Positions 1,688-30,742 of a stretch of DNA of 32,000 nt are shown in pieces (position 1 is the first letter of the stretch; every line of letters starts with the position of its first letter). The stretch is from the NCBI GenBank assembly GCA_963718915.1, contig CAVRAI010000007.1, forward strand, positions 210,001 through 242,000. The letters run 5' to 3'. The stretch comes from an uncultured Chloroflexia bacterium. GTDB taxonomy: Bacteria > Chloroflexota > Ktedonobacteria > Ktedonobacterales > JADMIN01. The notes under the pieces were generated by a model. That model searched no databases. It saw only the letters and a program-made list of their open reading frames with translations, and was not told the origin of the DNA. The translations under genes and the position numbers were made by a program.

Positions 1688-3682
1688 ATGAGCGCGTTTC
1701 GTGCCACCTTCGTCAGTCATGCCCACGCCGATAATGACCTCTGCGACCGCTACGTCGCCGCGTTGCGGCCACGAGGCATTGATATCTGGTATGATCGCGA
1801 CAACGCGCAGAATGGCCATCTGCTCGGCTCAGAAATCCAGAAGGAGATACAGCAGCGCGCGGCCTTTGTGCTGCTCATGACGGAGAACGCGCTCGGCTCC
1901 TTCTGGGTGGATCTGGAGATGCAGAGTTATCTGGGGCTAATGGCGCAAGATCGTTCGCGACTGCTGCTGCCTGTGCGCATCGGTTCCTGCGCCGTGCCGC
2001 CGTTTCTCAACGCCTTCTTCTGGATCGACGCGCAAGCGATGCCTTTCGAGCAAGCGATTGAGGCCATTGCCTCTGCACTCTCGGACAGCACTATGCCATC
2101 CGCGCAGCCAAGAGCTTTGCCCGCTACCTCGTCCCCGGTCAACGCGCCAGCGCCACAGACGCCCACCGACCCTGTCAGCGACCTGCTGGCGCGTTTCCTG
2201 CCGCAGTTGCGCGATGCCTTCAATGCGCAGGACTGGCCCCAGGTGGCGCGACTGGCCGCCTTCATCCAGCGCAGCGTCCCCGCCGAGAAGCTGCCCAGCG
2301 AGGTCTACGCCATGCAGGGGCGGGCGCTGATGGCCGAGCGTGACTATGCCGGAGCAAAGACCGCCTGGGACACCATACGGCAGCGCGACTCGCTCGATGT
2401 GACGGCGCTACGGGCCGCCACCGATGCCCGTATCGCGCTGGGCGAGAAGGCCGCCGCTCTGCCGCTGCTCGACGATGCGCTCACGCTCACCACCGACCGC
2501 GCTCAACGGCTGGCGCTCTTGCGCATCGATGCCAGCGTGCTCGCTGAGGTCGCACGCGCTGAGAGTGGGGCAAGCGCCCAGACCCACTGGACGACGCTGC
2601 AGCGCGTCGTCAACGAGGGTCTGCAACTGGCGGGTGAGCAGGATGCTGATTGGCTGGCGCTCAAACTGGAAGCGTTGATGGGGCTGCAACACGATCAAGA
2701 GGCGTTGGATTTGGCAAGAACGCTGACTGCGCTTCCCGGCGCGACCGCCACCCTCTGGATGAACCGGGCACGGCTGGCATGGAAGCTGGCGGGCGAGACG
2801 CCGAACGACGAGATACGCGGCGCGCTGGACGCTGCCAGCCGTCTGGCTCCCAATGACGCCGCCCTCGCATTGGATCGCCAGCAATTGCTGGTTATCCTCA
2901 AGCCCGACCGCTTCCCGCCGCGCCTGGCAGAACAGGGCTTTGTTGTCCGGGAGCGCAATGGCGTCGCCTTCATTGTGCCGCCGATCTGCTCCGTACCTGC
3001 GGGCGAGTTCCTGATGGGTAGCAACAAGCGCCGGGACAAAGATGCGATTAACGACCATGAAATGCCACAACACCGCGTCACCCTCGCCGCCTTCTCCATC
3101 ACGCGCTTCCCGGTGACAGTGGCCGAATATGCCTGCTTTGTCGCAGCGGCGCGACACCGCGAACCGCAGGAGTGGGCAGGCCAACTGAAGAAACTCGACT
3201 ATCCCGTCGTTTCCGTCTCCTGGGATGATGCCATCGCCTACGCCGCATGGCTGGCGCAAATGAACGAGCAACCCTGGAGGCTGCCGACCGAGGCGGAGTG
3301 GGAGAAAGCGGCGCGTGGGACAGATGGGCGTCTCTTTCCCTGGGGCAATACGTTCGACCGGAGTCGTGCCAATACAGTTGAAAGCAGGCTACGCGGAGCA
3401 ACGGCGGTGGGCAGCTACCCGAGTGGGGCCAGCCCTTATGGCGCAGAGGAGATGGGAGGAAACGTCTGGGAGTGGACGCACAGCCTCTACAAGCCGTATC
3501 CCTACAAGATAAGGGATGGCCGCGAGGCGCCTGATTCCGATGAAGATCGTGTGCAGCGTGGTGGTTCCTGGTATGCCATCGACGTCGGCGCGCGTGCTGC
3601 CACCCGACTAAGCGCCAGTCCAGATCGCTGCAAGGACTACGACGGTTTCCGCCTGCTCCTTGAGGCGCCTGGTTCGGCATAG
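1688..3682 (+). CDS. TIR domain - Pro-rich linker - TPR-like helical repeats - FGE-sulfatase (SUMF1-like) domain fusion protein
   Basis: The N-terminus FVSHAHADNDLCDRYVAALRPRGIDIWYDRDN...AFVLLMTENALGSFWVDLEMQ has a bacterial TIR pattern including the W-x-x-x-E glutamate. The middle about 230 aa is Ala/Leu-rich helical repeat. The C-terminus PAGEFLMGS...VSWDDAIAYAAWL...WRLPTEAEWEKAARG...GNVWEWT...RVQRGGSW...GFRLL is the classic FGE-sulfatase fold signature. There is no Walker A motif anywhere. Confidence 0.85.
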   Translation: MSAFRATFVSHAHADNDLCDRYVAALRPRGIDIWYDRDNAQNGHLLGSEIQKEIQQRAAFVLLMTENALGSFWVDLEMQSYLGLMAQDRSRLLLPVRIGSCAVPPFLNAFFWIDAQAMPFEQAIEAIASALSDSTMPSAQPRALPATSSPVNAPAPQTPTDPVSDLLARFLPQLRDAFNAQDWPQVARLAAFIQRSVPAEKLPSEVYAMQGRALMAERDYAGAKTAWDTIRQRDSLDVTALRAATDARIALGEKAAALPLLDDALTLTTDRAQRLALLRIDASVLAEVARAESGASAQTHWTTLQRVVNEGLQLAGEQDADWLALKLEALMGLQHDQEALDLARTLTALPGATATLWMNRARLAWKLAGETPNDEIRGALDAASRLAPNDAALALDRQQLLVILKPDRFPPRLAEQGFVVRERNGVAFIVPPICSVPAGEFLMGSNKRRDKDAINDHEMPQHRVTLAAFSITRFPVTVAEYACFVAAARHREPQEWAGQLKKLDYPVVSVSWDDAIAYAAWLAQMNEQPWRLPTEAEWEKAARGTDGRLFPWGNTFDRSRANTVESRLRGATAVGSYPSGASPYGAEEMGGNVWEWTHSLYKPYPYKIRDGREAPDSDEDRVQRGGSWYAIDVGARAATRLSASPDRCKDYDGFRLLLEAPGSA

Positions 3683-5362: not shown

Positions 5363-5608
5363 GTTTTCAATTTACGACGGGCACGCCTCAACGGCTGGCG
5401 GTTAAAACCGCGCCTGAAGGGCCTCGCTTGCTGCGCGCGCTCTGCCACGAAACCCGCCTGCGCGGGTTCACAGAGCTACTCGCCAGCGGGTATCCCGTTG
5501 GGACACGTCTGGGAAGTCCGCGCAGGCGGACTTGGCGGCCGCAGGCCCTTCAGGCGCGGTTTCAACCGCCCGCGCTGCCCAGCGCGTGTCCCTCGTAATT
5601 TCTAAAAC
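5363..5608. mobile_element. MITE-like nested-palindrome element of about 246 bp, copy 1
   Basis: Terminal inverted repeats are gttttcaatttacgacgggcac (5363..) and gtgtccctcgtaatttctaaaac (..5608). Inner inverted arms are ggcggttaaaaccgcgcctgaagggcc (5397..5423) and ggcccttcaggcgcggtttcaaccgcc (5544..5570). It is collinear with 14125..14373. It has no coding capacity beyond spurious ORFs. Confidence 0.7.
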
Positions 5609-5945
5609 GCGTTCACGCTACGGTCTGCCTCGCCCGCCACAGCGCGCGGTGTGCGGAGGAAACAGTGAGCGTTCATTGATGCGCTGAGTGTAGCGCATAG
5701 CGAGTTCAGGGAGAAATCCCGCCAGACGCGGTTGACCGGCCAGTGTCGGCGCGGTAAAGTTCATAGTTAGACCACCGTCAAACAGAGGTCCAACATACAG
5801 CGCAGTGTTTTCGGCAGAAAGCAGGGAGGGTCTCGTGTATTCCTGTGGCTATGGCAACATGTCGCGGCGTCTGTTCGGCGCCATCGGGCTTGGGCTGGAG
5901 AGCGGCGAGATGGGCGCCAATGGAGTCAATGGAGTCAATGGCGCG

Positions 5946-8562
5946 ATGAGCTTCTCGCTGCCGGGCGATGCGCCGCGCTATGCGCCTGATCGCAAGGCGG
6001 ACGTGCGCCACATAGATCTCGACGTGACGCTTGACTTCGACGCGGCGAGTGTCGCTGGCACGGTCACCACCAGTTTTGAGACGCTCTTCGAGGAGGTGAG
6101 CGAGATCACCCTCGACGCCGCCGAACTGGAGATCGAGACGGTGACGATGGCGGGCAAGAAGACGCCGCTGCGCTTCTGGAGCGAGGGCGAGAAGCTGCAC
6201 ATCGCCCTCAACCGCACCTACCATCACGGCGAGCCATTCGGCGTCGCGGTACGCTACAGCGCGCAGCCGCGCACGGGCCTCGTCTTCGTCAAGCCGACGG
6301 CGGGCGACCCGGAACTGCCGGTGCAGGCGTGGACGCAGGGCGAGACCGAGTACCATCACTTCTGGTTCCCCTGCCACGATTTCCCCAACGACCGCGCCAC
6401 CACCTCGCTCCGCGCGACCGTCCCCACCGGCTTCTTCGTGCTCTCCAACGGCAAGCTCGAAGGCGTCAGCGAGACGGGTGATGGCCATAATACGTGGTCA
6501 TGGCGCATGGAGGAGCCGTATCCCGCCTATCTGATTACCCTGGTGGCGGGCGAATTCACCGAGTTGAAGGACTCCTGGCGCGATATTCCGGTTAACTACT
6601 ACGTGCCGAAGGGGCGCGAGGCCGACGGCCACTTCATGTTCGATAAGACGCCCGCGATGATCGAGTATTTCTCCGAGCGCTTCGGCGTGGACTATCCCTA
6701 CGAGAAGTACGCGCAGATCGTCGCCGAGCAGTTTACCGGCGCGATGGAGAACGCCAGCGCCACCACCCACAGCTATCGGCTGCTGCCCGACGCGCGCGCC
6801 ATCCTCGACTACACGCCGGAGCCGGTGGTCGCGCACGAGCTGGTGCACCAGTGGCATGGCGATATGCTGGCGGTGCGCGACTGGGCGCATACGTGGCTCA
6901 AGGAGTCGTCGGCGGACTTCTACGAGGCGACCTGGCGCGAGCATTCGGATGGCGTGGACGAGTTCCGCACGGAGATGCGCGACTACCTCCAGGCGTATCT
7001 GGAGGCCGACGCGCGCGGGCGGCGCCCCATCGTCTACAACGTCTATCGCAAGAACGGCAACGAGCTATTCGACCGCCACGTCTACGAGAAGGGCGCGCTG
7101 ACGCTCAATATGCTGCGGTTCGTCGTCGGCGAGGAGCCATTCTGGCGCGCCGTCAAGCTCTACACGCGGCGCAACCAGTGGCGCGAGGTCATCACCGCCG
7201 ACCTGGAGCGCGCCTTCGAGGAGGCCACCGGGCGCAGTCTGGCGCGCTTCTTCGAGCAGTGGCTCTACAAGGCGGGGCATCCCGAGTTCAACGTGCGCTA
7301 CTCCTGGGACGACGAGCACAAGCTGGCGCGGGTGACAGTGCGCCAGACGCAGGAGGAGACGGCGCAGACGCCGATCTTCGTGACGCCGGTGGATATCGCC
7401 TTCATGGTACCGGAGAAAGACGGCGCGCGCGGCGACGATCCCAAGGCGAAGGCGACGCTGACGACCTTCCGGGTGCAGGTGGATACGGCGGAGCAGACGT
7501 TCTACTTCCCGCTGCCACGGCGGCCGTTCTCGGTGCGTTTCGATCAGGGCGGCTGGCTCATCAAGACGCTGGACTTCGAGCGGCCCGCCGAGATGCTGCG
7601 CTACCAGCTTGCGCACGATCCCGACGTGCTGGGGCGGATCGAGGCGGCGGAGGCGCTGGGGCGGCTGGCCGATCCACAGAGCATCACGGCGCTGGAAACG
7701 CAGTTGATCGAGGAGTCGTTCTGGTCGGTGCGCGGGGCGATTGCCGAGGCGATAGGGCGGCAGCGCAACGAGCGCGCGCTCAACGGCGCTGACTGGCGCG
7801 CTGGAGCAAGGTGGATGAGCCAAAGGCGCGGCGGGCCATCGTGGCGGCGCTGGGCGTCTTCCACGCGCCGGAGCAGGCGGCGCTGGCCGAGCGCGCGGCG
7901 GCTACCCTGACGGCGCTGCTGGACGAAGGGCGACCCGAGCTACTTCGTGGAGTCGGCGGCGGCGACCGCGCTGGGCAAGACGAACGTCGCCGACGCCTAT
8001 GAGCGGCTGCGTGCCCCTGCTCGACCGCGCCTCCTGGAATGAGACGATCCGCGCGGGCGTCTTCGCCGGGTTGGGCGCGCTGGGCGATCCCCGCTGTGTA
8101 GAGACGCTGACGGGCTGGCTCGATCTCTCGAAGCCGCAGGACGCGCGGATGGTCGCGGCCAACGGGCTGCGCATTCTGGCGACGACGCGGCGTATCGAGG
8201 GCGAGGCGCAGGTGCGCGCGGTAGATGCGCTGATCGCGGCGCTCGACGATCCCTGGGAGCTGGCGGTCTTCCAGGCTATCGCGGCGCTAGCGGCCTGGGG
8301 CGATCAGCGGGCGATTCCGGCGCTCCAGCGGCTGGTGGATCGCAGCCCCGACGAGCGGGCGGTTCGTGGGGCGCGGACGGCCATCCGCACGCTGCAACAG
8401 GGGCGCGCGGCGGGCGATGAGACGCGCCAGCTGCGCAAAGACCTGGAGGAGCTACGCCAGCGCAACCGCGAGCTGACCGAGCGCTTGGAGGCGCTGGAGG
8501 CGCAGCATCCGCCAGCGGCAACGGCTACGTGCCCGGCGCGATACGGCTGTCGCCGCCACTAA
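5946..8562 (+). pseudogene. M1-family aminopeptidase N with C-terminal HEAT-repeat/coiled-coil region, interrupted by three apparent frameshifts
   Basis: Contains the GAMEN motif (FTGAMENASATTH) and the zinc motif HELVHQWHGDML...WLKES. The reading frame switches at about 7790-7795, about 7928-7931 and about 8010. The reconstructed sequence reads ...ERALNGA/LARWSKVDEPKARRAIVAALGVFHAPEQ...LLDEG/DPSYFVESAAATALGKTNVADAYERL/VPLLDRASWNETIRAGVFAGLGALGDPRCVE.... The start at ATG 5946 (MSFSLPGDAPRYAPD) was chosen over the upstream in-frame ATGs. Confidence 0.8.
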
Positions 8563-8797: not shown

Positions 8798-8875
8798 AAA
8801 CCGCGCCTGAAGGGCCTGCGGCCACGAAGTCCGCCTGCGCGGACTCATCCAGACGTTGCCCTCTACGATTGTCTT
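8798..8875. repeat. Half-copy (one arm) of the 246-bp palindromic element, inverted orientation
   Basis: aaaccgcgcctgaagggcctgcggccacgaagtccgcctgcgcggactcatccagacgt matches the reverse complement of 5495..5570. Its first 31 nt are identical to the reverse complement of 11347..11402. Confidence 0.7.
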
Positions 8876-8918: not shown

Positions 8919-11142
8919 CTATTCCTCGCCCCAGATAGTCGCTGCCTTATCATCGATAACAACAAGTCGTCCCCCGCCAGGGGACCAAGTACCGGGGATG
9001 GAGTAGAAGTTACCAATCTCCTGTCCGTTTTCCGCGTCCCACATCACTGGTCTTTTGAACATGTAACCGACGAGCCGCCTTCCATCAGACGACCATGATA
9101 TGTCGCTAATATGTTTGCCATAGCCAGCCAGAGTGGCGATAGTGGCGATGTCTCGCCCGCTGGCTGGTTCCCAGACTCTTGCCGAATCAAGGTTTGTGGT
9201 CTTATTTTCGCCGCAGATGGCCAGCCGTGCGCCATCGGGCGACCAGGCGAGCGTATTCACCTTCTCAAGGTGCTGGGCGAGGGTGACAAGTGAGCGTCCG
9301 CTAGACACATCCCATACCTTCGCGCCCTCTGCGCTGGCAGTGGCAAGTCGAGTACCATCAGGAGACCATGCCACAGGATTATGTCCACCGGAAAGGACAG
9401 CTAGAGATCGCCCACTAGCTGCGTCCCACACTCGTGCACTGTACGAGTTGGAAGTGACAAGCCGTGTCCCATCGGGCGACCATACAGCGGATGCCGGGGA
9501 GACATAGCCATAGGGGGCGTAGTTGGTGGTGTCAGTCGCAGTTAAGGTGGTGAGCAAACGTCCACTGGCTGCATCCCAGAGCTGGTCTCCAGAACTACTA
9601 GTAGTAGCGAGCCAACGCCCATTTGGCGACCACGCCAGAGATCACGTCCCTTGGGAGCCAATTGTGGCCAGCACCTGCCAGCGTTAGTCATGCCGTAGAT
9701 CTGGGATCCAGTGTTTAGCGTGGTCATACGAACGCGTGATCCACCGCCTCCGACGGCAAGTCTGGTGCTGTCGGGCGCCCATACAACAGCACTGGCACTA
9801 CCATACATCGTTTGCGGGACAGCTAGTGTGCCGAGTAGTCGTCCAGAGGCCGTATCCCACACCTGCACGCCATCTGTACTGACAGTGGCGAGCAAGGCGC
9901 CGTTAGGAGACCATAATGGGCTGCCTAGTTGGCCGCTGTGACCTGAAAGGGTAACTAACGGCACGAAATGCGGGAACTCAAACCGCCAGTGTGCGATGGT
10001 GGAAGGGTCAACGCCAGCAGACGTTGCGGCGTTGAGCAGGGCGCGGTAGGTGAGCCAGTTTTTGCTGTCCCATGTACCCCTAGCCGCTGATGAGATCGCA
10101 GAGTGCCAGGCAGGCAGCACCAACGTGGCATCTACCCCTGCGGGTAGCATAGGTAACGCGCGAGCTGCCGCGACAGATTCGTCGTAACGCTGAGCAATCA
10201 ACAATGCCTCTATCTCACGCAATGCCCAGCGTGGGTCGTCTGGCGCCATGCGGCGGGCATCGCTCACACGGCGCGCGAAATCGTCCCAGCGATTTAGGCG
10301 GGCCAGCGCGGCAGTCAACTCTTCGAGGATGGCCAGGCGGGTAGTGGTGTCGTCGAGCGATGCAAGCGCAAAGGCGCGGGTAAGAATCTCCACTGTCTGC
10401 CCATCATTGCCAGCCCTGGCGGTGAGTCGCACATACAGCAGCAAAGTATCGGCGTCGTCAACGCCCGCTTTGAGCGCCTGCTTGATGACCGCCAATCCGC
10501 CGTTATTGTCACCAATGGCAAAAGCGGCTGAAGCGCGCTCACGCCAGAGCACCGGTGTCATCGCACCTCGCTCAACCAATATCTCCGTCTTATCGAGCAC
10601 ATCAGACCAGTGTTCGCGGGCATAGGCAGTATGAATTTCTCGTGCCAGCCGTTCGTTAGGCGAGAGCGGGCGGTTGGGATCTGGGGCAGTGGAGCTAGCA
10701 GTCACAGTCGGCGCGTTTGGGTCGGCGCCAATGGCGCGCAACACCTCAGCCAGCGAGGCGGCGTAGTGCGCGGGGTCATCGGCCTGGGTAAAGTCAAACT
10801 CCTGGACACTTTCCCAGTCTGGGCGACGCGGCGAGTGGAGCAAGGCGTAATCGGCAGCAGGTGCTTGCCAAGCTCGACGCTCTGGCGGAAAGCGATCTTC
10901 ATTTCCTGCGGCACCCACTTGGATTCTGAAGCATGAGGCGAGAGGACGACGAGGAAATACGGGCGTTCAGTGATCTCGGCAATGATACGATCCCACCAGT
11001 CGTCGCCGCCATGCAGCCCACCGGATGTGTCGTACCAGACGGCATCCTCACCCAGATTGGCGCGCAAATCGGCAATCAAACGCAGGCAGAAGGGGTCATC
11101 CTGATGGCTGTGACTCACAAAGAGCAGGCGTGATGTATCCAT
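8919..11142 (-). pseudogene. TIR domain - helical (TPR-like) repeats - WD40 beta-propeller protein, disrupted by at least 2 frameshifts and possibly an in-frame TGA
   Basis: Three collinear ORFs cover the gene. The first, 10702..11142, is the TIR domain (MDTSRLLFVSHSHQDDPFCLRLIADL...FLVVLSPHASESKWVPQEMKIAF). The second, 9542..10918, holds the helical repeats and then WD40 (LWSPNGALLATVSTDGVQVWDTASGRLL). The third, 8919..9557, is WD40 (AWSPDGTRLATASAEGAKVWDVSSGRSL, etc.). The first frame switch is at about 10845 (reconstructs LLPITP/LLHSPRRPDWESVQEFDF). The second lies within 9557..9683. The best WD40 fit (QVLATIGSQGT*SLAWSPNGRWLATT) additionally implies a TGA at the complement of 9642..9644. 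The start ATG (complement of 11140..11142) follows GGAAGGGAG. Confidence 0.8.
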
Positions 11143-11346
11143 GTACCGCGAATCTCCCTTCCAGTCTGTCTGTTCGTGAAGTACGTACAGGCATTGTAGC
11201 CCAGAAGTGAGTAGGCGTAAAGGACGTGTATTCCCAATAAGCGGTAATGATAGCAATGTGGCGCAAAAAGGCGGATAGAGGGAGCGCGTCACTACACGCG
11301 CCAGAACTGGAGTCGCAACGGCGGACCGCAGAGTGCGTCTCTCTGG

Positions 11347-11402
11347 AACCTGCGCAGGCAGGTTTCGTGGCCGCAGGCCCTTCAGGCGCGGTTTCAACCG
11401 CC
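11347..11402. repeat. Half-copy (one arm) of the 246-bp palindromic element, direct orientation
   Basis: aacctgcgcaggcaggtttcgtggccgcaggcccttcaggcgcggtttcaaccgcc is similar to 5512..5570 and 14277..14335, and is the inverted partner of 8798..8846. Confidence 0.7.
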
Positions 11403-11417
11403 AGCCACCTTCAACTG

Positions 11418-14013
11418 CTAATCATCCCTTGCGCCCGGTGCGCCCAGGATGCGCTGGCGGCTTCGGCGGCTTCGGCGCTTCCCGGCTGGCGCGACGTCGG
11501 AAAGCTTCTTCGCGGTTGGCTCGCGCCGCTCGGCGGAAAGCACGCCCGAAACGCCACGTATCTCGCGCAGGATATTTTCCAACTCCTCGGGATGGCGGAT
11601 TTCGAGCACCGCGTTGATGACCGCGCGCTCAGGCCGGTGGCGGGTCACCACCTCCACCCGCAGCATATTGATCTTCGCCGCCGGAGATCACGCCCGTCAC
11701 GTCGCGCAGCAGCCCCGTCCGATCCGTGCCCTCGACGATGATCGGCGCGCGGAAAGTCTCGTCGCCTTCGAGCCGCGGCCAACTGACCGCGATGCCGCGC
11801 TCCGGCTGGCGCGCCAGCAGCGACCGCAGATTCGGGCAGTCGGCGCGGTGGATGACCACGCCCCGGCCCCGCGTGACAAAGCCGTAGAGATCGTCGCCCG
11901 GCAAGGGACTGCAACAGGTGGCGAGGTGCGTCATCATGCCGCCCATCCCCTCCACGCTGACGCCAACCTCCGACTCGCGCGTGGGCAACGTCTGCGGCAG
12001 TTGCTCCGGTTTCGCTTCCTCCGGTGGGCGCAGCCGCTCGCGCAACTTCGCCAGCACCGCCGCCATCCGCAGTTTGTCCGCGCCCAACGCCACCAGCAGC
12101 GACTCCACATCGGACTGCTTCAACTCCTGGGCGAGCCATTCGAGATCATCTTCGGGCAGGTCGTCGAGACCCTTACGCAGGCCCATCGAACGCAGCTCGC
12201 GATCCAGCCGCTCGCGTCCCATCTGGAGGTCGATGTCGCGCTCGTGGCCTTTGAGATACTTCAGGATGCGGTCGCGGGCGACCTTCGTGCGCACAATCTT
12301 GAGCCAGTCGCGCGTGGGGTGGGCTTCATTGCGCTTGAGAATCTCGATCACGTCGCCGTTCTTCAGCACGTAGTCCAGCGGCACCAGCTTCTTGCTCAGC
12401 CGCCCCATGCCATCGTCCGAGGTGATGCGCACCCCGGCGACATGCAGCCCCAGGTCGGTATGCACGCGGAAGGCGAAGTCGAGCGGCGTCGAGCCAGCCG
12501 GAAGCTCCCTGGCGTCACCAGCGGGCGTGAAGACGTATATCTGCTCGCGCAGAACATCGCCTCTCACGGCATCCAGCGCGCGCTGGGTCGCCGTCGAGCC
12601 GGGCGAGTGCAGCTCCTGCTGCCAGTCCTTCACCTGTTGCACCCAGGATTGCAGCGGTCGCGCCGTCGCTTTGGCGCTGTCGCCAGCATCCTTGTAATAC
12701 CAGTGCATCGCGACGCCGTACTCCGCCATCTCATGCATCTCGCGCGTGCGAATCTGAATCTCGGCAAGCTGGTCGTCCAGGCAGAAGACGGTGGTATGCA
12801 GCGACTGATAGCCGTTGGGCTTGGGGCTGGCGATGAAGTCCTTGATGCGCCCATCTTTGGGACGCCACAACTCATGCACATGTCCCAGCACCAGATAGCA
12901 TTCGCCGACGCTGCCGACGATGATGCGGAACGCCAGCATGTCATAGAGCGAGGACAGGTCGTGGCTGCCGGTGCGCTGCACCTTCTTGTAGATGCTGTAG
13001 AGATGCTTGACCCGGCCCGATATCTCGGCGGTGATGCCGATCTTCTGCATCTCCTCACGCAGCATCGCGATGACCCGGCGCACATAGCGGCTGCGGCCCT
13101 CGGTCTCCTCGGCGACGGCGTCGCGCAACCAGGCGTACTCCTCCGGCTCCAGCACCGCGAAGGCCAGGTCTTCCAGCTCGCCCTCGACACGCCCCATGCC
13201 AAGCCGTCCGGCGAGTGGCGCGAAGATCTCGCGCGTCTCCTGCGCCATAATGCGGCACTCATCCAGACTGTATGCCGGTGTCACTGTCGCCTCTTGCGAT
13301 GAAGCGGTCTCGCCGTTATGCCCGTTTCCATTCGCCGCTTGCGCGTGCCAGTAGTCCGCCGCCGTCAACACCTCACGCATCAGCCGCAGGTGATCGGCGA
13401 TCTTGATGACGACGACACGCGGATCCTCGGCCATCGCGACAAACATCTTGCGCAGGGCGTCGGCGTCCTGCTGGCGTTGGCGCGCCCGTCCGCGCCGCCG
13501 TTCGCGCGGCACGTCGTCTGGCTCAACGCTGCTCTGGGCGCTGCTCTGGGCGCTGCTCTGGGCGCTACGCCGCAGGGCAACCGCCGGGCGCTGCAGGGCG
13601 TCGAAGCGCTCCAGGCTGGCGATGGTCTCCGCGACCTGCTCGCCGAACTCGCCGCCCAAACGCTCGCGCACTTCGCCGAGGTCAACCAGCCGCGCCCCGA
13701 CGACCTGATCGAGCAGCACCGCCGCCAATGTGATCGCGTCGATATGCAGCGCCTCGGCCAGCGTCTGGGCGACCGCCAGCACGTAGGCGAAATCCTGGCG
13801 CAAGACGCCCGTCGCCCGCTCGTCGGTTGCTCCGGCGCTCTCCACGCGCGCCTGAAGCGCTATGCGGATGGCCGTCTCGACGTTGGCGACATCGTGGGGT
13901 GGCAGATAGCCGACGATGGTCTGCCGCAGACGCTCCGCGCCCGCATCGAGCAGGAGGCTCGGCGGGATGGCGGAAGGCTCGGATTGTGCTGATTGCAGCG
14001 CATCGGTATCCAT
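11418..14013 (-). CDS. Long RelA/SpoT homologue (RSH) 1: degenerate HD domain, intact (p)ppGpp synthetase, TGS, CC/zinc-finger and ACT domains; one frameshift before the ACT domain
   Basis: Synthetase motifs are intact: GRVKHLYSIYKKV, YDMLAFRIIV, GYQSLHTTV, LAEIQIRTREMHEMAEYGVAMHWYYK. TGS is present (IYVFTPAGDARELPAGSTPLDFAFRVHTDLG). The HD motifs are replaced: ...FAYVLAVAQTLAE...AAVLLDQVVGARL, and IADHLRLMREV instead of LADRLHNMRT. The frame switches at about 11683 (GVIS/AAKINMLRVEVVTRHRPERAVINAVLEIRHPEELENILREIRGVSGVLSAER). Confidence 0.88.
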
Positions 14014-14124
14014 ACGAAACCACCAGACATGTATGTGTACGCGGGTTATCTCTCTCTACAAGCATTGCGGGTCATTGTCGTCGTTGGGCAAGGCGGATGG
14101 TTGGCCACCTGCGCGGCATGATGA

Positions 14125-14373
14125 ACGTTCACAATTTACGAGGGACAGCCACGCGGCTGGCGACTGAAGTCGCGCCTTGAGGGCCTCGCTGACGCTCCGC
14201 CACGAAACCCGCCGTCGCGGGTTGCACAGAACCGCTCACCAGTAGTAACACTGTAGGGATACGGTCTGAGAAGTCCGCGCAGGCGGACTTGGTGGCCGCA
14301 GGCCCTTCAGGCGCGGTTTTAACCGCCCGCGCACCCCACGCACCCCGCGCATGTCCCTCGCAATTTCTAAAAC
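14125..14373. mobile_element. MITE-like nested-palindrome element of about 249 bp, copy 2
   Basis: Collinear with 5363..5608. It shares the same terminal inverted repeats (gttcacaatttacgagggaca / tgtccctcgcaatttctaaaac), the same inner arms (gaagtcgcgccttgagggcc / ggcccttcaggcgcggttttaaccgcc) and the gaagtccgcgcaggcggactt hairpin. It lies between the two RSH genes. Confidence 0.7.
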
Positions 14374-14401
14374 TACATCAGCCTACGGTATGGGAACCTC
14401 A

Positions 14402-14435
14402 CCCATTCGCCGTAGCGTTTACGCTACGGCCTGCC
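14402..14435. repeat. Partial copy of the 'attcgccgtagcgtttacgctacgg' repeat module
   Basis: cccattcgccgtagcgtttacgctacggcctgcc is near-identical to 8721..8748. Confidence 0.6.
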
Positions 14436-14461
14436 CATCTTGCCGCGAACCGCCACAAATA

Positions 14462-16675
14462 CTAACGCGGAACGTTCTCGCAGCCGTTGCGCTGGTCGCG
14501 CTCCACCTGGGTGACGCCCTGCACCGTCCGCAGTCGGCGCATCACCTGCTCGCGCCGGGTCGTCGGCAGCATGTCCAGCGTGAGGAGGATCGCCGCCTTA
14601 TAGCGATCCTGATGAGCGATGGCCACACTGCGATAAACGTTCAATCCTAATTGTGCCACACACTCAGAAACCTGGTGCATCAACCCCTGGTGATCCTGCC
14701 CATAGATAGCGAACGCCATGCGGTACGGCATCGTGGGAAGCTGATCCCAGCGCACCTGCACCGTCCCATCATTCGTCGTCCCGCGCGCGAGTCGGCGATC
14801 CAGCGTCATGCGCAGCGTGCGGCAACAGGTGCGGTGGATCGTGACGCCGCTGCCACGGTCGGCGACGCCAAGAATAGCGTCACCAGGACACGGGAAGCAA
14901 CAGCGGGCGAACTGCACCTGCGCCAGCCGCCCGGAGGGGTGGCGCAAGGGCTGCGGGCGTGGTGGCTCGCCTGGGAGCGCGCCGCTACTGGCCCGTTGCT
15001 GGCTGCGTAGCGAGCGGTTGATGCGCTCGCGGGCGGTGCGGGTGGTGACGATGGTGAGCCATTCAGGTCGCGGAACCGCCTCAGCGCTGGTGAGTATGCG
15101 TACGACATCGCCCGTCCTCAGCGCGTAGTCCAGCCCCACCGCGCGCGAGGTCAGCACCCCCTGCCGCGTGTTGCGCTGGATGATCGCTCCGGCGGCATGG
15201 CTGCCAATGTCGGTATGAATCTGATAGGCGAGGTCGAGCACCGTCGCCCCAGGGGGAAGCTCGCGCACATCCCCTTTGGGGGTAAAGATAAAGATCTGGT
15301 CTTCCAGCACCTCGCCGCGCAGCGCCTCCAGAAAGTCCGCCGCGCTCAGCCGCAGCTCGTCCTGCCAGCGCCCCAGTTGCGAGACCCAATCGGGCAGATG
15401 CGCCAGCCAGAGCGCCGAGGTCACTGGCTCCCGCTCGCCTGATTCGGCGCGTTCCAGCCAGGTGGTGGCGATACCGTGCTGGGTGGCGATATGCATCGAG
15501 TGGGTGCGGATGTGCATCTGGGCGAGGCGGCCATCGAGGGCGAAGACGGCGGTGTGGAGGGAGCGATAACCATTGATCTTGGGTCCGGCGATGTAGTCGC
15601 GAATGCGTTCCAGGTATGGATGCCAGAGCTGGTGAATGATGCCGAGCGCCGCGTAACACTGCTCCGAGGTGTTGACCAGAATGCGGAAGGCAAACACGTC
15701 GTGGAGCTGCGCGACATCCATGCCGGTCTCCTGCGTCTCCAGATACGCGCGGTAGGGACGCTTGACGCGCCAGTTGACCGCCGCCGGGATGCCGCTCGCC
15801 AGCAGTTCGTGCGCCATTCGCTCGCACATGCGCTCGGCCCAGCGCAACCGTTTCGCTTCTTCCTCGCGTAACCGTTTAACGGTGCGTTCGTACTCCGCGG
15901 GCATCAGGAAGGAGAAGGCCAGGTCTTCCAGTTCGGACTGAAAAACATGGACGCCGATGCGTCCGGCGAGTGGCGCGTATAGCTCGATGGTCTCGCGCGA
16001 CTTCTGTTCGCGTTTGATAGGCGTCTGTGCAGCCATCGTGCGCATGTTGTGTAGCCGATCCGCCAGCTTGAGCAGGACGATGCGCGGGTCGGCGACCATC
16101 GCCAGAAAGAGCTTGCGCACGGTCTCGGCCTGCTCGCGGAGCTTGCGCGCGCGCGCCGCCTGTGGGTCAACGGCGCCGTCTAGCGCTGGCGTGGGCAGAA
16201 CCGCAACCGGAGCTACCTCACCACTGCCCTTCTCACCTTTGTCGCCCCTGGTGTCCTTGGGCGTCTCCACCGCGTCGAACTTGGTGACGCCGTCCACAAT
16301 CGCTGCGATCACCGGCCCAAACTGCTCGCTCAAACTGTCAAGTGTAATCGTCGTGTCCTCAACGGTATCGTGGAGCAGCGCCGCGGCGATCCCCTGCGCG
16401 TCCATCGCCAGTTCCGCGAGAATCCCGGCCACCGCGATGGTATGCTCGATGAACGGCTCGCCTGACCGGCGCATGACGCCCGCATGCGCCGCCTCCGCCA
16501 CCTGGTACGCCTCGTGGATGAGAGCGAGGTCGTCGTCGTTCATGTACAGCGAGCAGAGGCCAAGCAGCGCGCTCAGGCTCGGCGATTGAGCCATCATGGG
16601 CTGATCGTCGGTCTGTGGCTCGCTCATAGGTTGGCTGCCTTCGGCTCGGTGATCGAGCGGTGCGTCGGTGCGCAT
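14462..16675 (-). CDS. Long RelA/SpoT homologue (RSH) 2: intact HD hydrolase, synthetase-like domain with substituted catalytic motif, TGS, CC and ACT domains
   Basis: The HD domain is intact: HAGVMRRSGEPFIEHTIAVAGILAEL...AALLHDTVEDT and LADRLHNMRTM. The synthetase region reads RVKRPYRAYLE, HDVFAFRILV, GYRSLHTAV, LAQMHIRTHSMHIATQHGIATTWLER, so the E-x-Q-IRT glutamate is Gln and AEYGVAAHW is lost. TGS is present (IFIFTPKGDVRELPPGATVLDLAYQIHTDIG) and the ACT domain is at the C-terminus. The true start may be the internal ATG giving MSEPQTDD (complement of 16628..16630). Confidence 0.88.
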   Translation of the reverse strand: MRTDAPLDHRAEGSQPMSEPQTDDQPMMAQSPSLSALLGLCSLYMNDDDLALIHEAYQVAEAAHAGVMRRSGEPFIEHTIAVAGILAELAMDAQGIAAALLHDTVEDTTITLDSLSEQFGPVIAAIVDGVTKFDAVETPKDTRGDKGEKGSGEVAPVAVLPTPALDGAVDPQAARARKLREQAETVRKLFLAMVADPRIVLLKLADRLHNMRTMAAQTPIKREQKSRETIELYAPLAGRIGVHVFQSELEDLAFSFLMPAEYERTVKRLREEEAKRLRWAERMCERMAHELLASGIPAAVNWRVKRPYRAYLETQETGMDVAQLHDVFAFRILVNTSEQCYAALGIIHQLWHPYLERIRDYIAGPKINGYRSLHTAVFALDGRLAQMHIRTHSMHIATQHGIATTWLERAESGEREPVTSALWLAHLPDWVSQLGRWQDELRLSAADFLEALRGEVLEDQIFIFTPKGDVRELPPGATVLDLAYQIHTDIGSHAAGAIIQRNTRQGVLTSRAVGLDYALRTGDVVRILTSAEAVPRPEWLTIVTTRTARERINRSLRSQQRASSGALPGEPPRPQPLRHPSGRLAQVQFARCCFPCPGDAILGVADRGSGVTIHRTCCRTLRMTLDRRLARGTTNDGTVQVRWDQLPTMPYRMAFAIYGQDHQGLMHQVSECVAQLGLNVYRSVAIAHQDRYKAAILLTLDMLPTTRREQVMRRLRTVQGVTQVERDQRNGCENVPR

Positions 16676-21702: not shown

Positions 21703-22397
21703 AGGAATGCTCCTCTTTCATATCTCTGCGCCATCATGACGCCATCATGGTCGTCGGCGTTGCGTTGGGTGGGCGCCGAAGACGTAAGAGCAGCCAACGC
21801 GCGCGTCGGCTCTGCAATCTTATAACATATGACTGAAATAAAATCAATATCGATATCAATTTTTGTAATATTTTTACGCTGCGCCATCGACTCAACACTG
21901 TGAGCAGCCCTCTCACAATTCGGCGATGAGGCAGGCGATAGTGTGATATACTGAACACGTTGTACATTTGTTCTTGTGTTCTCGAGGCACGGCGCTCCTC
22001 GGTTCATTGGCGCCGAGTTTTCGACGAATTTCACGGAAGCCGACTATCTGCTCAATCCATGATGAGATGCCGCCTCAGGCGTGTGTCGCCAGTGTGTCAG
22101 TTTGCTATACTTTCTGACCGTACTCTTGACATCTGGCGCCTTCTCCCCGTATCTCGTAGATTTGTATGTGTTTCATCGCAGGAGAAAGAAACAGAAGCAC
22201 TGAAGTGTCGTAGCAAGGTCTTGCGGCGATGTGACATACTGGTGCGCGCGACACTGTGGATGACATGGGCGCGACCGGTGCGCCACACTCATCGCAGTGT
22301 GCGCGACGTTCCGCACAGCTAACGTTAAAGAATTATTCGACAGGATACGTCCATTCAAATGGCATAGCGTGTAGGTATCGTAAAGGTGGAAATCAGC

Positions 22398-24770
22398 ATG
22401 GCGAAGAACCTGGTGATTGTGGAGTCACCCGCCAAGGCAAAGACGATAGAGAAATTTCTTGGCGACGATTTTGAGGTGCGCGCCTCGATGGGGCACATCA
22501 TCGACCTGCCGCGCAAGGGGCTGGGCGTTGATACCCGGCGCGACTTCCAGCCGAAGTACGTCATCATCGAAAAGAAAGAACATCTGCTGGCGGAACTCAA
22601 AAAGGCCAGTCGCGCCGCGCAGACGGTCTATCTCGCTCCCGACCCCGACCGCGAGGGCGAGTTCATCGCCTGGTCGCTCAAGGAGATGCTTGGCCTGCGC
22701 AAGCCGCGCCGCGCCGTCTTCAACGAGATTACGCGCCGCGCCGTGCAGGATGCGATAGCCCAGACCCGCGATATCGACGAGGATCTCTTCAACGCGCAGC
22801 AGGCGCGCCGGGTACTCGACCGCCTGGTGGGCTACAAGATCAGTCCGTTGCTCTGGCGGCGCGTGCAGTCGGGCACCAGCGCCGGGCGGGTGCAGTCGGC
22901 GGCGCTCCGTATCATCTGTGACCGCGAGGCCGAGATTCGCGCGTTCGTCCCTGAGGAGTACTGGACGATTGCGGCGACGCTGAGCAAGGCGAAGGAGCGC
23001 GAGACCTTCACTGCGATGTTGATTGGCCGCCAGGGGTCGAAGGAGGTCGCCGAGAGCGACGCCGAGACCGAGGGCAACGAGACGCAGCAGAACAGCCAGA
23101 ATAGCCAGAACGACCAGAACGGTCGCGCGGGCCGCATTCGCATCGAGTCAAAAGAGCAGTCTGATGCTATTCTGCGCGAGCTGGAAGGCGCCGCCTACAC
23201 GGTGCTCAGTGTGCGCCAGCGCGACGTGCGCCGCCAGCCGTTCCTGCCCTACACCACCAGCACGCTCCAGCAGGACGCTTCGGTGCGGCTGCGCTTCAAG
23301 CCGAAGAAGACGATGAGCGTGGCTCAGGGTCTCTATGAAGGCATCGAGTTGGGCGACGCCGGGCATCAGGGCCTCATCACCTACATGCGCACCGACTCGA
23401 CCCGCATCTCTGAGGAGGCGCAGGCAGCCGTACGCCAGTATATTGATGGGACGTTTGGCACGCAGTACATCGGCCCAGGGCGCACGAGCCGCGCCAAGGC
23501 GAGCAACGCCAATGTGCAGGACGCCCACGAGGCGATCCGCCCGACCGATGTCACACTCACGCCGGACCGCGTCAAGCATTATCTGACGGGCGACCAGTTC
23601 AAGCTCTACGAGTTGATCTGGCGGCGATTCGTCGCGGCGTTTATGGCGCCGGCCGTCTTCGATACGCTGCGGGTGGATATCGCGGCGGCGAGCTTCCTCT
23701 TCCGCACCAACGGCACGACGCTCAAGTTCCCCGGCTTCTACGCGGTCTGGCCGCGCGAGCAGGAGGGCACGACGCTGCCCGCGCTGCGTGAGCGCGACGC
23801 GCTCGAGCTGCATAAGATCGCCTCGGATCAGCACTTCACCCAGCCGCCGCCACGCTTCACCGAGGCCAGCCTGATTAAAGACCTGGAGGAGCGCGGCATC
23901 GGTCGCCCCAGCACCTTTGTCAGCATCGTCAGCACGATTCAGGACCGCGGCTATGTCGAGCAGCAGGAGCGCCGCTTCGTGCCGACCTGGCTGGGCGAGA
24001 CGGTCAACGAGTTGATGGTCAAGCATTTCCCGGAGATCGTGGACACCAACTTCACGGCGGATATGGAGCGTCGTCTCGATGGCGTCGAGGAGGGCAAGCA
24101 GGGCTGGACGGAGTTCCTCAAGGACTTCTATGCCGCGCTGCGTGGCCAGCTCGAAAAGGCTGAATCCGAGATGGATCGCGTGCAGAAGCCAGTTGAGGAG
24201 GCGAACGAGGCATGCCCACAATGTGGCAAGCCGCTGCTGATTCGCAACGGGCGGTTTGGGCGCTTCATCTCGTGCTCGGGCTACCCGGAGTGCGACTTCA
24301 AGAAGCCGCTGGTGGCGAAGACGGGCGCGCACTGTCCGAAGGATGGCGGCGATATCGTGGAGCGGCGCGCCAAGCGTACCGGCAAGGTGTTTTATGGCTG
24401 CGCGAACTTCCCGGCGTGCGATTTCGTCGCCTGGGATCGCCCGCTGGCGACGCCCTGCCCCGAATGTGGCGGGCTGCTGACGCTGGCCAACGGCAAGACC
24501 GAGGCGCACTGTGGCACGTGTGGCGCGCTGGTGGCTGGCGCGCAGGAGGGTACGCCAGAGGTGGTTGGCCATCGCGCTCCCGCGCCGGAGCGCCCGCGTC
24601 GAGCGGCTGGCGAGACCGTTGCCCGTAAAACGACGGCTCGTAAGACGACCACGCGCAAAGCAGCCAGCACAGTTCGCAAAACCACCACGGCGCGCAAGAC
24701 GACGGGCGCTAGCCGGGCGACCACCACCACTCGCTCCAGCCGCGCCACCCGGCAGCCAGCGGCTTCCTGA
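22398..24770 (+). CDS. topA: DNA topoisomerase I (type IA) with three C4 zinc ribbons and a basic Thr/Arg/Lys repeat tail
   Basis: The TOPRIM N-terminus is MAKNLVIVESPAKAKTIEKFLG...LAPDPDREGE. The active-site region is ITYMRTDS. Zinc ribbons include CPQCGKPL...CSGYPEC, CPKDGG...CANFPAC and CPECGG...CGTCG. The start ATG at 22398 is preceded by AAGGTGGA; the track's 22386 GTG is less likely. Confidence 0.93.
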   Translation: MAKNLVIVESPAKAKTIEKFLGDDFEVRASMGHIIDLPRKGLGVDTRRDFQPKYVIIEKKEHLLAELKKASRAAQTVYLAPDPDREGEFIAWSLKEMLGLRKPRRAVFNEITRRAVQDAIAQTRDIDEDLFNAQQARRVLDRLVGYKISPLLWRRVQSGTSAGRVQSAALRIICDREAEIRAFVPEEYWTIAATLSKAKERETFTAMLIGRQGSKEVAESDAETEGNETQQNSQNSQNDQNGRAGRIRIESKEQSDAILRELEGAAYTVLSVRQRDVRRQPFLPYTTSTLQQDASVRLRFKPKKTMSVAQGLYEGIELGDAGHQGLITYMRTDSTRISEEAQAAVRQYIDGTFGTQYIGPGRTSRAKASNANVQDAHEAIRPTDVTLTPDRVKHYLTGDQFKLYELIWRRFVAAFMAPAVFDTLRVDIAAASFLFRTNGTTLKFPGFYAVWPREQEGTTLPALRERDALELHKIASDQHFTQPPPRFTEASLIKDLEERGIGRPSTFVSIVSTIQDRGYVEQQERRFVPTWLGETVNELMVKHFPEIVDTNFTADMERRLDGVEEGKQGWTEFLKDFYAALRGQLEKAESEMDRVQKPVEEANEACPQCGKPLLIRNGRFGRFISCSGYPECDFKKPLVAKTGAHCPKDGGDIVERRAKRTGKVFYGCANFPACDFVAWDRPLATPCPECGGLLTLANGKTEAHCGTCGALVAGAQEGTPEVVGHRAPAPERPRRAAGETVARKTTARKTTTRKAASTVRKTTTARKTTGASRATTTTRSSRATRQPAAS

Positions 24771-30542: not shown

Positions 30543-30742
30543 GCGGCTAAAGCCGCGCCTAAGGGACACGCTTGCGTGTCCACAAAGCCTGCCTCCGCAG
30601 GCTCCAGAGAAGCGCTCGCCAGGATTAGCCGTGCCTAATGTCGTTTAACATGTTGTTCGGGTAATCCATGAGGCGCGTCTGCCTCTGGTGAGCCCGCGCA
30701 GGCGGGCTTGGCGGCGCAGCCCTTAGACGCGGCTTTAGCCGC
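30543..30742. mobile_element. MITE-like nested-palindrome element of 200 bp with 23-bp terminal inverted repeats
   Basis: gcggctaaagccgcgcctaaggg (30543..30565) pairs with cccttagacgcggctttagccgc (30720..30742) with 1 mismatch as a reverse complement. Internal hairpins are ggacacgcttgcgtgtcc, agcctgcctccgcaggct and gcccgcgcaggcgggc. It is a sequence variant of the 5363..5608 family. Confidence 0.65.

Follow-up and report, generated by a model that had tools for sequence, protein, structure and literature searches.

Can the synthesis and the hydrolysis of (p)ppGpp be parted between two long RelA/SpoT homologs (RSHs) in a lineage that lies outside the RelA/SpoT split of the Beta- and Gammaproteobacteria? 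The question is raised by a stretch of 32,000 nt (hereafter the window) from a soil Chloroflexota bacterium of the order Ktedonobacterales, where two long RSH genes stand in tandem on the minus strand, RSH2 first and RSH1 downstream of it. According to our analysis, the pair is most probably a lineage-specific duplicate of Rel, with synthesis assigned to RSH1, a predicted synthetase-only protein [hS], and hydrolysis to RSH2, a predicted hydrolase-only protein [Hs]. This interpretation builds on sequence, conservation, phylogeny, synteny and fold, which were observed directly. Automated annotation at present calls RSH1 and RSH2 either “bifunctional (p)ppGpp synthetase/hydrolase” or “HD domain-containing protein,” and is probably wrong in both cases.

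Both same-strand open reading frames (ORFs) proposed in the initial annotation of this DNA are present (Table 1), and all the peptides quoted there were found: VLLDQVVGARL, ADHLRLMRE, LAEIQIRT and AEYGVAMHWYYK in RSH1, and LAQMHIRT, TQHGIATTWLER and YRAYLE in RSH2. Its description of both products as full-length HD–synthetase–TGS–coiled-coil–ACT proteins has to be corrected in two respects, namely that the ACT domain of RSH1 is frameshifted and the helical region of RSH2 is shortened. The Chloroflexota host, which had been stated only as a condition, is supported by the best named homologs of the pair, which at 92–93% identity belong to Ktedonobacterales genomes (class Ktedonobacteria, phylum Chloroflexota). 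Ortholog matches in Ktedonobacterales metagenome-assembled genomes (MAGs) range from 55 to 93% identity for the RSH1 type and from 51 to 100% for the RSH2 type, and RSH2 itself is identical to the library protein P0121. The Pfam families HD_4, RelA_SpoT and TGS were detected in both proteins, and NCBIfam TIGR00691 was matched with 513 and 515 bits at a cut-off of 499, which identifies both as long RSHs. The two copies share 37% identity, and their domain scores are reversed: RSH1 reached 68 bits for HD_4 (a partial match) and 131 bits for RelA_SpoT, RSH2 146 and 85 bits, respectively.

Residues are numbered here according to Bacillus subtilis Rel; the numbering equals that of RelSeq, the Rel of Streptococcus equisimilis, in the HD domain, and E324 corresponds to RelSeq E323. 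The alignments were made with HMMER to solved Rel and RelA structures and with MAFFT together with B. subtilis Rel and E. coli RelA and SpoT, and the two procedures agreed on the position of every quoted motif. Family statistics are based on 112 RSH1-type and 113 RSH2-type orthologs from Ktedonobacterales metagenome genomes. In RSH1, LLDQVVGA stands in place of the Rel motif LLHDxxED, ADHLRLMRE in place of ADRLHNMRT, and the metal ligand H53 is a tyrosine. The hydrolase residues H53, H77, D78, D82, H147 and N148 are replaced in all 112 RSH1-type sequences. The synthetase domain has kept its catalytic and substrate residues at all 16 positions compared, with R241, K243, K251, D264, R269, R295, K297, K304, N306, Y308, H312, E324, Q326, E337, H343 and Y346 invariant throughout the same 112 sequences. 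Loss of the metal and catalytic residues of HD and integrity of the synthetase residues are the two sequence properties of the [hS] class, and RSH1 has both, as had been proposed; the class is further defined by (p)ppGpp synthesis under stimulation by starved ribosomes with deacylated tRNA, with no hydrolysis. It carries the motif RxKD (R-I-K-D) of bifunctional Rel and not the ExDD of RelA. The TGS, AH/RIS and zinc-finger (CCxPxPGD...HxxxC) domains are present in its C-terminal region, TGS with the histidine equivalent to B. subtilis H420, and the ACT domain is split by a frameshift in the assembly. An additional insertion, found in RSH1-type proteins, lies after the degenerate ADxLxxMR motif. 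The AlphaFold model of the RSH1 ortholog P0003 gave ribosome-bound E. coli RelA as its best match.

RSH2 is the mirror image, as the initial annotation had suggested from the intact HD motifs, the Gln at the position of RelSeq E323 and the sequence YRAYLE; alignment, the 113 orthologs and the fold all agree with this. R44, H53, H77, D78, E81, D82, D144, H147 and N148 are invariant in all 113 sequences of its type, that is, the HD site is intact. In the synthetase domain AQMHIRT replaces LEVQIRT of Rel, TQHGIATTWLE replaces AEYGxAAHWxYKE, and RVKRPYRAYLE replaces RPKHIYSIYRK. The altered states are themselves conserved: K251 is E or D and Y338 is H in all 113 sequences, Q326 is H in 107, E337 is Q in 106 and Y346 is E in 101, while position 324 is occupied by Q (106), P (6) or L (1) and never by E. 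The substitutions spare R241, K243, D264, R269, K304, N306, Y308 and H312. In a set of 80 long RSHs from many phyla, a single sequence departs from glutamate at E324, and only two depart from K251 and Q326; likewise, among about 150 cluster representatives from a library of 1.84 billion proteins only a handful deviate at K251, E324 or Q326. According to Hogg 2004, as cited in PMC13299517, both D264G and E323Q abolish synthesis by RelSeq. RSH2 thus combines an intact HD site with the loss of residues essential for synthesis and a pseudo-synthetase domain that is retained with its fold, as in SpoT[Hs]-type proteins. A bifunctional Rel[HS] has both centers intact in one polypeptide; here, each copy has one degenerate center.

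Misalignment, which would have explained the substitutions away, is implausible because invariant residues flank the substituted positions, and HMMER, MAFFT and the AlphaFold superposition give the same picture: the model of the N-terminal half of RSH2 fits Staphylococcus aureus Rel (7oiw) with a TM-score of 0.93 and a root-mean-square deviation of 2.4 Å. Since the substitutions are fixed across 112 and 113 orthologs, they are not a chance event. The C-terminal region of RSH2 retains the TGS, zinc-finger and ACT domains, with a helical region reduced to about 70 residues. In RSH2-type proteins the spacer between TGS and the zinc finger has a median of 70 residues vs. about 140 in other long RSHs, no member of the family matched PF19296 (the helical domain), and the AlphaFold model of RSH2 shows a single helix (residues 546–563) in the shortened linker. 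About half of the helical domain has been lost in RSH2-type proteins.

The degenerate domains do not behave as relics. Within-family identity is 0.53 for HD and 0.77 for the synthetase domain in RSH1, and 0.72 and 0.63, respectively, in RSH2. The ratio of non-synonymous to synonymous substitution rates (dN/dS), computed here and below against the 90%-identical relative L003, is 0.03 for the RSH1 synthetase, 0.21 for the RSH1 pseudo-HD and 0.054 for the RSH2 pseudo-synthetase. These low values indicate that the pseudo-domains are kept under selection and are not decaying.

The origin of the pair was addressed with neighbor-joining (NJ) trees of 142 long RSHs, drawn from both families, from cluster representatives and from 47 named genomes, RelA and SpoT of E. 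coli included. The named genomes span many phyla and include six other Chloroflexota; these outgroups and the locus L004, described below, came from a genome scan with the generic HD motifs ALLHD[TV]VED and KLADRLHN[LM], which returned at least 600 matches, mostly from unrelated phyla. All pseudo-HD proteins fell into one clade (100% bootstrap) and the hydrolase-type proteins into another (63–96%), and the two clades were sisters with a support of 80% for all columns, 77% for the synthetase domain and 90% for the synthetase plus C-terminal domains. E. coli RelA and SpoT and at least 12 actinobacterial Rel proteins branched away from the pair, SpoT with proteobacterial sequences; the sampled actinobacterial and Firmicutes long RSHs likewise did not group with it in this tree, which was built without reference RshA–D sequences. 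RSH1 scored 413 bits against the RelA equivalog NF008124 (cut-off 728), and the score for the SpoT equivalog NF008303 was 414 bits (cut-off 947), so that neither protein reaches the proteobacterial cut-offs. RSH1 lacks ExDD and is distant from E. coli RelA in all trees, which places it outside the RelA ortholog group, and the pair does not belong to the SpoT group either. The segment of TGS from the conserved His to the LDY motif has 16 residues in 98 of 98 outgroups and 23–30 in both paralog clades, and a loop between alpha6 and alpha7 has about 40 residues in both clades vs. 14 in most other sequences. The sister clades and the common TGS insertion therefore indicate a lineage-specific duplication and not a transfer. 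A single tandem duplication, of a Rel in which the TGS and alpha6–alpha7 insertions were already present, is the simplest history, and independent duplication with subfunctionalization, as the initial annotation had assumed, is the best reading of these data together with the RxKD of RSH1; the activities themselves are predicted from sequence.

A related arrangement was found in L004 (9977–14812; deposited as “uncultured Chloroflexia,” with relatives named Ktedonobacteraceae), which has a tandem RSH pair with the [hS] gene downstream. Its upstream copy belongs to a type (P0415–P0534) that has kept E324, Q326 and K251 and differs from canonical synthetases at other positions: R241W, Y246A/S, Y249N, E337D, H343Y and Y346L were found in 118 of 118 members. 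This copy may represent an intermediate or an alternative state of synthetase loss. The TGS domains of the two L004 paralogs are 76% identical to each other and 51–54% identical to those of their supposed orthologs, which suggests gene conversion between the tandem copies.

The order RSH2, then RSH1 is kept in L003, L004, L086 and L087. In L086 and L087, which are distant orthologous loci, no spacer exists and the stop codon of RSH2 overlaps the start codon of RSH1 by 4 nt (ATGA), an arrangement that implies translational coupling. The genes are 24 nt apart in L004 and about 440 nt apart in L003 and the window (448 nt in the latter). The spacer of the window holds the repeat that had been recognized as resembling a miniature inverted-repeat transposable element (MITE); it is indeed a dispersed element with five copies or fragments in the window. 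In the fullest of them (5394–5630), about 118 nt separate two terminal inverted repeats of 31 nt (GCTGGCGGTTAAAACCGCGCCTGAAGGGCCT ...). The corresponding spacer of L003 holds a diverged element of this type. A search of the whole window against Rfam, the spacer repeat included, matched no family, and the repeat is therefore no known RNA; a promoter and terminator scan of the spacer gave nothing above the shuffled background. In L086 (8604–9764) and L087 (8476–10831) the pair is followed by an opposite-strand gene for the ribosome-biogenesis GTPase RsgA, which is absent from the window, and in L087 a gene for a Ppx/GppA-family phosphatase comes next. RsgA is a (p)ppGpp-binding GTPase. These surroundings could possibly form a functional neighborhood for alarmone metabolism.

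From sequence, conservation and precedent we infer how the two proteins may work, that is, their catalytic activities, their dependence on the ribosome and the regulatory role of the pseudo-domains. RSH1 would be the source of the alarmone, a RelA-like dedicated (p)ppGpp synthetase, and activation on starved ribosomes, as in Rel and RelA, is expected because its synthetase site and its C-terminal domains are canonical. Its sensor array would consist of TGS with the tRNA-contacting His and of the helical, zinc-finger and ACT/RRM domains. The HD domain, which lacks the Mn2+-binding and catalytic residues, would persist as a scaffold and intramolecular regulatory partner, as in RelA. RSH2 would be the sink, a Mn2+-dependent (p)ppGpp hydrolase. 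Its pseudo-synthetase domain, with the E-to-Q change at the catalytic, Mg2+-binding glutamate, the reversed charge at K251 and Q326H, has mostly kept its nucleotide-contacting residues and probably binds nucleotides and tunes the hydrolase without catalysis. The halved helical domain suggests that RSH2 acts off the ribosome. Ancestrally the genes appear to have formed a bicistron, coupled in translation by an overlap of 4 nt, into which the MITE-like element would have come in the window lineage; with the two genes co-transcribed and translationally coupled, synthetase and hydrolase would be made in a fixed ratio.

Several observations weigh against this interpretation, and four other explanations have to be considered. 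One concerns descent: one copy might have been acquired horizontally, as a proteobacterial RelA or SpoT or as an actinobacterial Rel or RshA. Each paralog scores higher against Mycobacterium smegmatis Rel (381–385 bits) than against the other (327 bits at 37% identity), both carry RxK/RD as in Actinobacteria and Firmicutes where other Chloroflexota Rel proteins have E/Q/SxDD, and in NJ trees of the C-terminal region only, the pair is not recovered as a clade, in conflict with the full-length trees. The trees are, moreover, distance-based NJ complemented by a home-made quartet maximum likelihood (ML) procedure, and not a full ML or Bayesian analysis. We tentatively attribute the C-terminal conflict to acceleration in the C-terminal region of RSH2 and possible gene conversion in Ktedonobacteraceae, and not to separate origins. 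The sister-group relationship was recovered from all three column sets, the E. coli and actinobacterial proteins fall elsewhere, the TGS insertion and the long alpha6–alpha7 loop occur in both clades and are missing from 98 of 98 outgroups, and the tandem, ancestrally overlapping layout is the expected product of a tandem duplication. A proteobacterial RelA or SpoT as donor, which the initial annotation had named, beside misalignment, as an outcome that would overturn its proposal, is rejected by the equivalog scores, the NJ trees and the shared TGS insertion, and we regard any horizontal origin as extremely unlikely. Alternatively, duplication and reciprocal decay may have occurred twice within Ktedonobacteria, in Ktedonobacteraceae and in the lineage of the window, with the apparent orthology of the [hS] copies being an artifact of rates. 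This would agree with the mutual closeness of the L004 TGS domains, with the variation of pseudo-HD states and of the synthetase lesions of the hydrolase copy between the lineages, and with the C-terminal NJ trees, where the hydrolase copy of Ktedonobacteraceae joins the [hS] clade (71–79%). However, quartet ML on all columns favored a single duplication before the split of Ktedonobacteraceae, with like copies grouped together (F1,K1|F2,K2), in 12 of 12 cases (mean delta lnL +18). By block, like-with-like orthology was preferred in 12 of 12 cases for HD and 10 of 12 for the synthetase domain, and the TGS and zinc-finger plus ACT blocks were ambiguous. Together with the 76% identity of the L004 TGS domains, this ambiguity leaves room for C-terminal gene conversion or parallel duplication, and conversion between tandem copies accounts for the C-terminal signal equally well; two separate duplications seem rather unlikely.

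The other two explanations concern function, with respect to which a literature search found no biochemical or genetic test of any Ktedonobacterial RSH. RSH2 could still be bifunctional, like E. coli SpoT[HS], with a weak or conditional synthesis of (p)ppGpp or a related nucleotide, and the pair would then be [hS]+[HS]. The residues that it retains, the G-loop Tyr308 among them, make some residual or altered nucleotidyl chemistry possible, and the strong purifying selection on the pseudo-synthetase, together with the conservation of the replacement residues, would fit a functional site. In addition, the Ktedonobacteraceae orthologs of RSH2 keep E324, Q326 and K251, so that the loss of synthetase residues is not uniform across the clade. 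On the other hand, E323Q alone abolishes detectable synthesis in RelSeq, according to the same citation as above, and RSH2 also has a reversed charge at K251, changes at Q326, E337, Y338 and Y346 and only half of the helical domain; E324, K251 and Q326 are retained in 78–79 of the 80 diverse long RSHs, and a [Hs] copy from Anaerolineae (see below) is altered at the same positions (K251E, E324A, Q326K), as inactivation predicts. A bifunctional RSH2 is therefore quite improbable. The pair is, furthermore, known from a 32-kb window, and additional RSH genes, such as SAS, SAH or a third long RSH, could sit elsewhere in the genome. As for RSH1, an extra C at about 11683–11684 shifts its frame and leads to a stop at 11629, ahead of ACT; if real, it would leave this genome with a synthetase devoid of the C-terminal regulatory domain, that is, with a gene recently inactivated or truncated, whose product would have 794 residues without most of ACT/RRM or would not be made at all. 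The second indel in the tail and the repeat insertion that parts RSH1 from RSH2 might be taken in the same sense. However, the peptide encoded in the shifted frame (AKINMLRVEVV...SAERREPTAKK) is 100% identical to the ortholog P0003, and the shifted ACT frame has a dN/dS of 0.04 at a dS of 0.41, which speaks against decay. Both indels lie in short homopolymer contexts and jointly restore the frame, the second one (about 11471–11480) leading back to the orthologous end ...HPGRTGRKG* with a stop at 11422–11424. RSH1 orthologs have 820–940 residues, and ACT is present in all 120 listed except a few short or partial entries. A peptidase M1 gene (at about 8008) and a TIR-WD40 gene (8919–11397) are likewise broken in the window, and L003, the nearest relative, a Flye-style long-read contig, also has a split topoisomerase gene. 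Assembly indels are favored, and are probably the cause, because the ACT peptide is identical to that of P0003, dN/dS is low and other genes of the window are broken; a real mutation, which would have to be very recent, is unlikely. Programmed frameshifting at the +1 site of RSH1 was also considered and was rejected, as the orthologs are unshifted there and other genes of the window are broken too.

Complete subfunctionalization of the kind that we propose for the Ktedonobacterial pair is known from Moraxellaceae, which have RelA[hS] and SpoT[Hs] (Atkinson 2011; PMC3153485), with experimental and structural confirmation (Tamman et al. 2022; PMC9974481). There, too, two full-length long RSHs occur, one with a pseudo-HD and an active synthetase domain and the other with an active HD and a pseudo-synthetase domain; the pseudo-domains are kept, presumably for regulation, and the hydrolase copy has shortened inter-domain or helical regions. 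The pseudo-synthetase of Acinetobacter baumannii SpoT acts as a regulatory domain (PMC9974481). The Ktedonobacterial pair differs in being monophyletic within Ktedonobacteria and unrelated to the proteobacterial RelA and SpoT clades, in having RxKD in RSH1 where RelA has ExDD, and in its layout, as the Moraxellaceae genes are dispersed and the Ktedonobacterial ones are adjacent and ancestrally overlapping. The lesions are different as well: A. baumannii SpoT has lost the D264 equivalent, the G-loop Tyr and the adenine- and guanine-binding arginines (PMC9974481), whereas RSH2 has E324Q, Q326H and K251E with D264, Y308 and R269 kept. The alpha6–alpha7 loop, short in the monofunctional SpoT, has about 40 residues in both Ktedonobacterial copies.

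The RelA[hS]/SpoT[HS] pair of E. coli also arose by duplication of Rel, with one copy becoming a dedicated synthetase and the other taking over hydrolysis. However, E. coli SpoT keeps all synthetase residues and RSH2 does not, the clades differ, and the E. coli genes are unlinked; the hydrolase copy of Ktedonobacteraceae, with E324, Q326 and K251 in place, is the observed state most like E. coli SpoT. RshA–D are lineage-specific long-RSH duplicates outside Beta- and Gammaproteobacteria, with clades in Actinobacteria, Bacteroidetes, Bacilli or Deltaproteobacteria, and in RshB of Bacteroidetes the HD domain has diverged much as in RelA (Atkinson 2011; PMC3153485). They resemble the pair in being second long RSHs that arose by Rel duplication in such a lineage, but all of them are annotated as [HS], no reciprocal [hS]+[Hs] pair was reported among them and none came from Chloroflexota (PMC3153485). 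For Chloroflexi, Dehalococcoidetes and Thermomicrobia the same survey has Rel[HS] as the sole entry, and Ktedonobacter is absent from it; Jimmy 2020 distinguishes 13 long-RSH subfamilies. In the literature library searched, the two papers naming both Ktedonobacter and ppGpp were soil-community studies, in which RSH genes were not addressed. By sequence and fold, the closest solved relatives are the bifunctional Rel proteins of the RelSeq, B. subtilis and Mycobacterium tuberculosis/M. smegmatis type (8fr8, 6yxa, 7oiw, 1vj7), with which the pair shares the domain order and RxKD, and from which it differs in having one intact center per copy, the TGS insertion and the long alpha6–alpha7 loop in both copies and the truncated helical domain in RSH2. 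The pair adds a convergent case to an evolutionary outcome already known and is not a new principle. Of the initial suggestion of a convergent solution the independent origin is supported, and the novelty is smaller than implied, with RshA–D and Moraxellaceae already on record. Its own features are the adjacency and coupling of the genes, the different pseudo-synthetase lesions with binding residues kept, the loss from the helical domain and the shared TGS insertion.

A second tandem pair of long RSHs with reciprocal loss was found in the Anaerolineae MAG GCA_046757065.1 (L084, 6202–10624; JBHHXL010000104.1; also L085). In the upstream gene (P0331) the HD domain is intact and the synthetase domain carries K243N, K251E, E324A and Q326K; 17 nt further on, the downstream gene has a dead HD domain (PHYTNDAHT at nine positions) and an intact synthetase domain. 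The two proteins are 47.6% identical to each other, are closest to Rel of Anaerolineales and Chloroflexia, have ExDD and are devoid of the TGS insertion. The Anaerolineae pair goes back to a duplication of its own, which ended in the same division and in the gene order seen in Ktedonobacteria. On this basis we put forward, tentatively and as more doubtful than probable, a broader proposal: tandem, translationally coupled [Hs]-then-[hS] operons may have evolved repeatedly in Chloroflexota (one or more times in Ktedonobacteria and, independently, in Anaerolineae), the hydrolase gene being upstream in every case and the lesions converging on K251, E324 and Q326. The pseudo-synthetase of Ktedonobacterial RSH2, with its conserved Q/H/E/Q/H/E signature and its retained nucleotide contacts, would then be a nucleotide-sensing allosteric module that gates an off-ribosome hydrolase without a helical domain. 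If so, the pair would be a naturally occurring “split Rel,” its intramolecular HD/synthetase switch having been resolved into two co-expressed proteins. A partial long RSH was also observed in L005 (3303–4925; “Proteobacteria bacterium Centralia_MAG_675”), on a contig of 4.9 kb. It combines an intact HD domain with a degenerate synthetase domain (R241H, K251R, R269T, E324D and Q326H) and a 5-residue TGS insertion (a His-to-LDY segment of 21 residues in this fragment), and it joins the RSH2 clade; the contig probably carries Ktedonobacteria-like DNA that was binned wrongly.

What makes the Ktedonobacterial pair of interest is recurrence and the unusual pseudo-synthetase. Until now, Moraxellaceae have been the only documented case of a full partition of synthesis and hydrolysis between long RSHs, and there it came late, in addition to the one duplication that gave proteobacterial RelA and SpoT. 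Ktedonobacteria and, apparently, Anaerolineae provide replicates, which turn a one-off into a recurring outcome and allow comparison of which residues are repeatedly altered and whether the pseudo-domains always stay. They also bear on the “conformational constraint” model (PMC9974481), in that changes of inter-domain length can be set beside catalytic specialization. A natural E-to-Q pseudo-synthetase with nucleotide-binding residues is attractive for separating binding and allostery from catalysis.

Table 1. Coordinates of the RSH genes, their domains and the associated repeats in the window.
Feature	Position	Strand	Evidence or remark
RSH2, long RSH, predicted hydrolase-only [Hs], 737 aa	14462..16675	-	ORF; Pfam HD_4, RelA_SpoT, TGS, ACT_4
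RSH2 HD (hydrolase) domain, residues 56-242, intact	15950..16510	-	catalytic/metal residues invariant 113/113; AlphaFold confidence (pLDDT) mostly >85
RSH2 pseudo-synthetase domain, residues 303-406	15458..15769	-	K251E, E324Q, Q326H, E337Q, Y338H, Y346E
RSH2 TGS domain, residues 461-529, with clade insertion of ~9 residues	15089..15295	-	Pfam TGS and alignment
RSH2 shortened linker in place of helical (AH) domain, ~61 residues	14908..15091	-	end of TGS to CCxPxPGD
RSH2 ACT/RRM domain, residues 650-726	14498..14728	-	Pfam ACT_4
MITE-like or repetitive extragenic palindrome (REP)-like dispersed repeat in the RSH2-RSH1 spacer	14180..14440	.	85-93% identical to the 5394-5630 copy
Copies/fragments of the repeat family	5394-5630, 8798-8862, 11339-11413, 14180-14440, 30684-30720		five in window
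RSH1, long RSH, predicted synthetase-only [hS], 794 aa as it stands, premature end	11629..14013	-	ORF; Pfam HD_4 partial, RelA_SpoT, TGS, AH_RIS
RSH1 pseudo-hydrolase domain, residues 75-215	13369..13791	-	Y, D, Q, A, R, L at H53, H77, D78, D82, H147, N148
RSH1 synthetase domain, residues 333-443, fully canonical	12685..13017	-	16 residues invariant 112/112
RSH1 TGS domain with clade-specific insertion	12334..12540	-	Pfam and alignment
Frameshift site 1 in RSH1, extra C	11681..11686	-	ATCTCCGG vs. ATCTCGG in 90%-identical L003
Remaining RSH1 ACT and Lys/Pro-rich tail, out of frame with the ORF	11422..11680	-	Pfam ACT_4; P0003 identity

Other genes of the window and of L003 showed disruptions of their own. 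The peptidase M1 gene (5805–8562) is read as two ORFs of 701 and 187 aa with a change of frame at about 8008, and its counterpart in L003 is intact with 930 aa; the split reflects either indel errors in the assembly or a pseudogene. The 2.8-kb segment 8617–11464 is missing from the syntenic L003 and encodes a TIR-domain/WD40 beta-propeller protein in three overlapping ORFs (10702–11397 with TIR_2; 9542–10918; 8919–9557 with WD40), flanked by MITE-like repeats (8798–8862 and 11339–11413); it may be an inserted defense-type gene. In L003 (contig_8666, Flye-style; 1–1586) topoisomerase I is called as two genes, one of 491 aa and a fragment, a split that fits long-read indel errors in these assemblies; the ORF of the window (22386–24770) is intact with 794 aa. 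A second TIR protein of the window is encoded at 1688–3682 by a 664-aa ORF, which joins an N-terminal TIR_2 domain to a C-terminal FGE-sulfatase (formylglycine-generating enzyme-like) domain in an unusual fusion.

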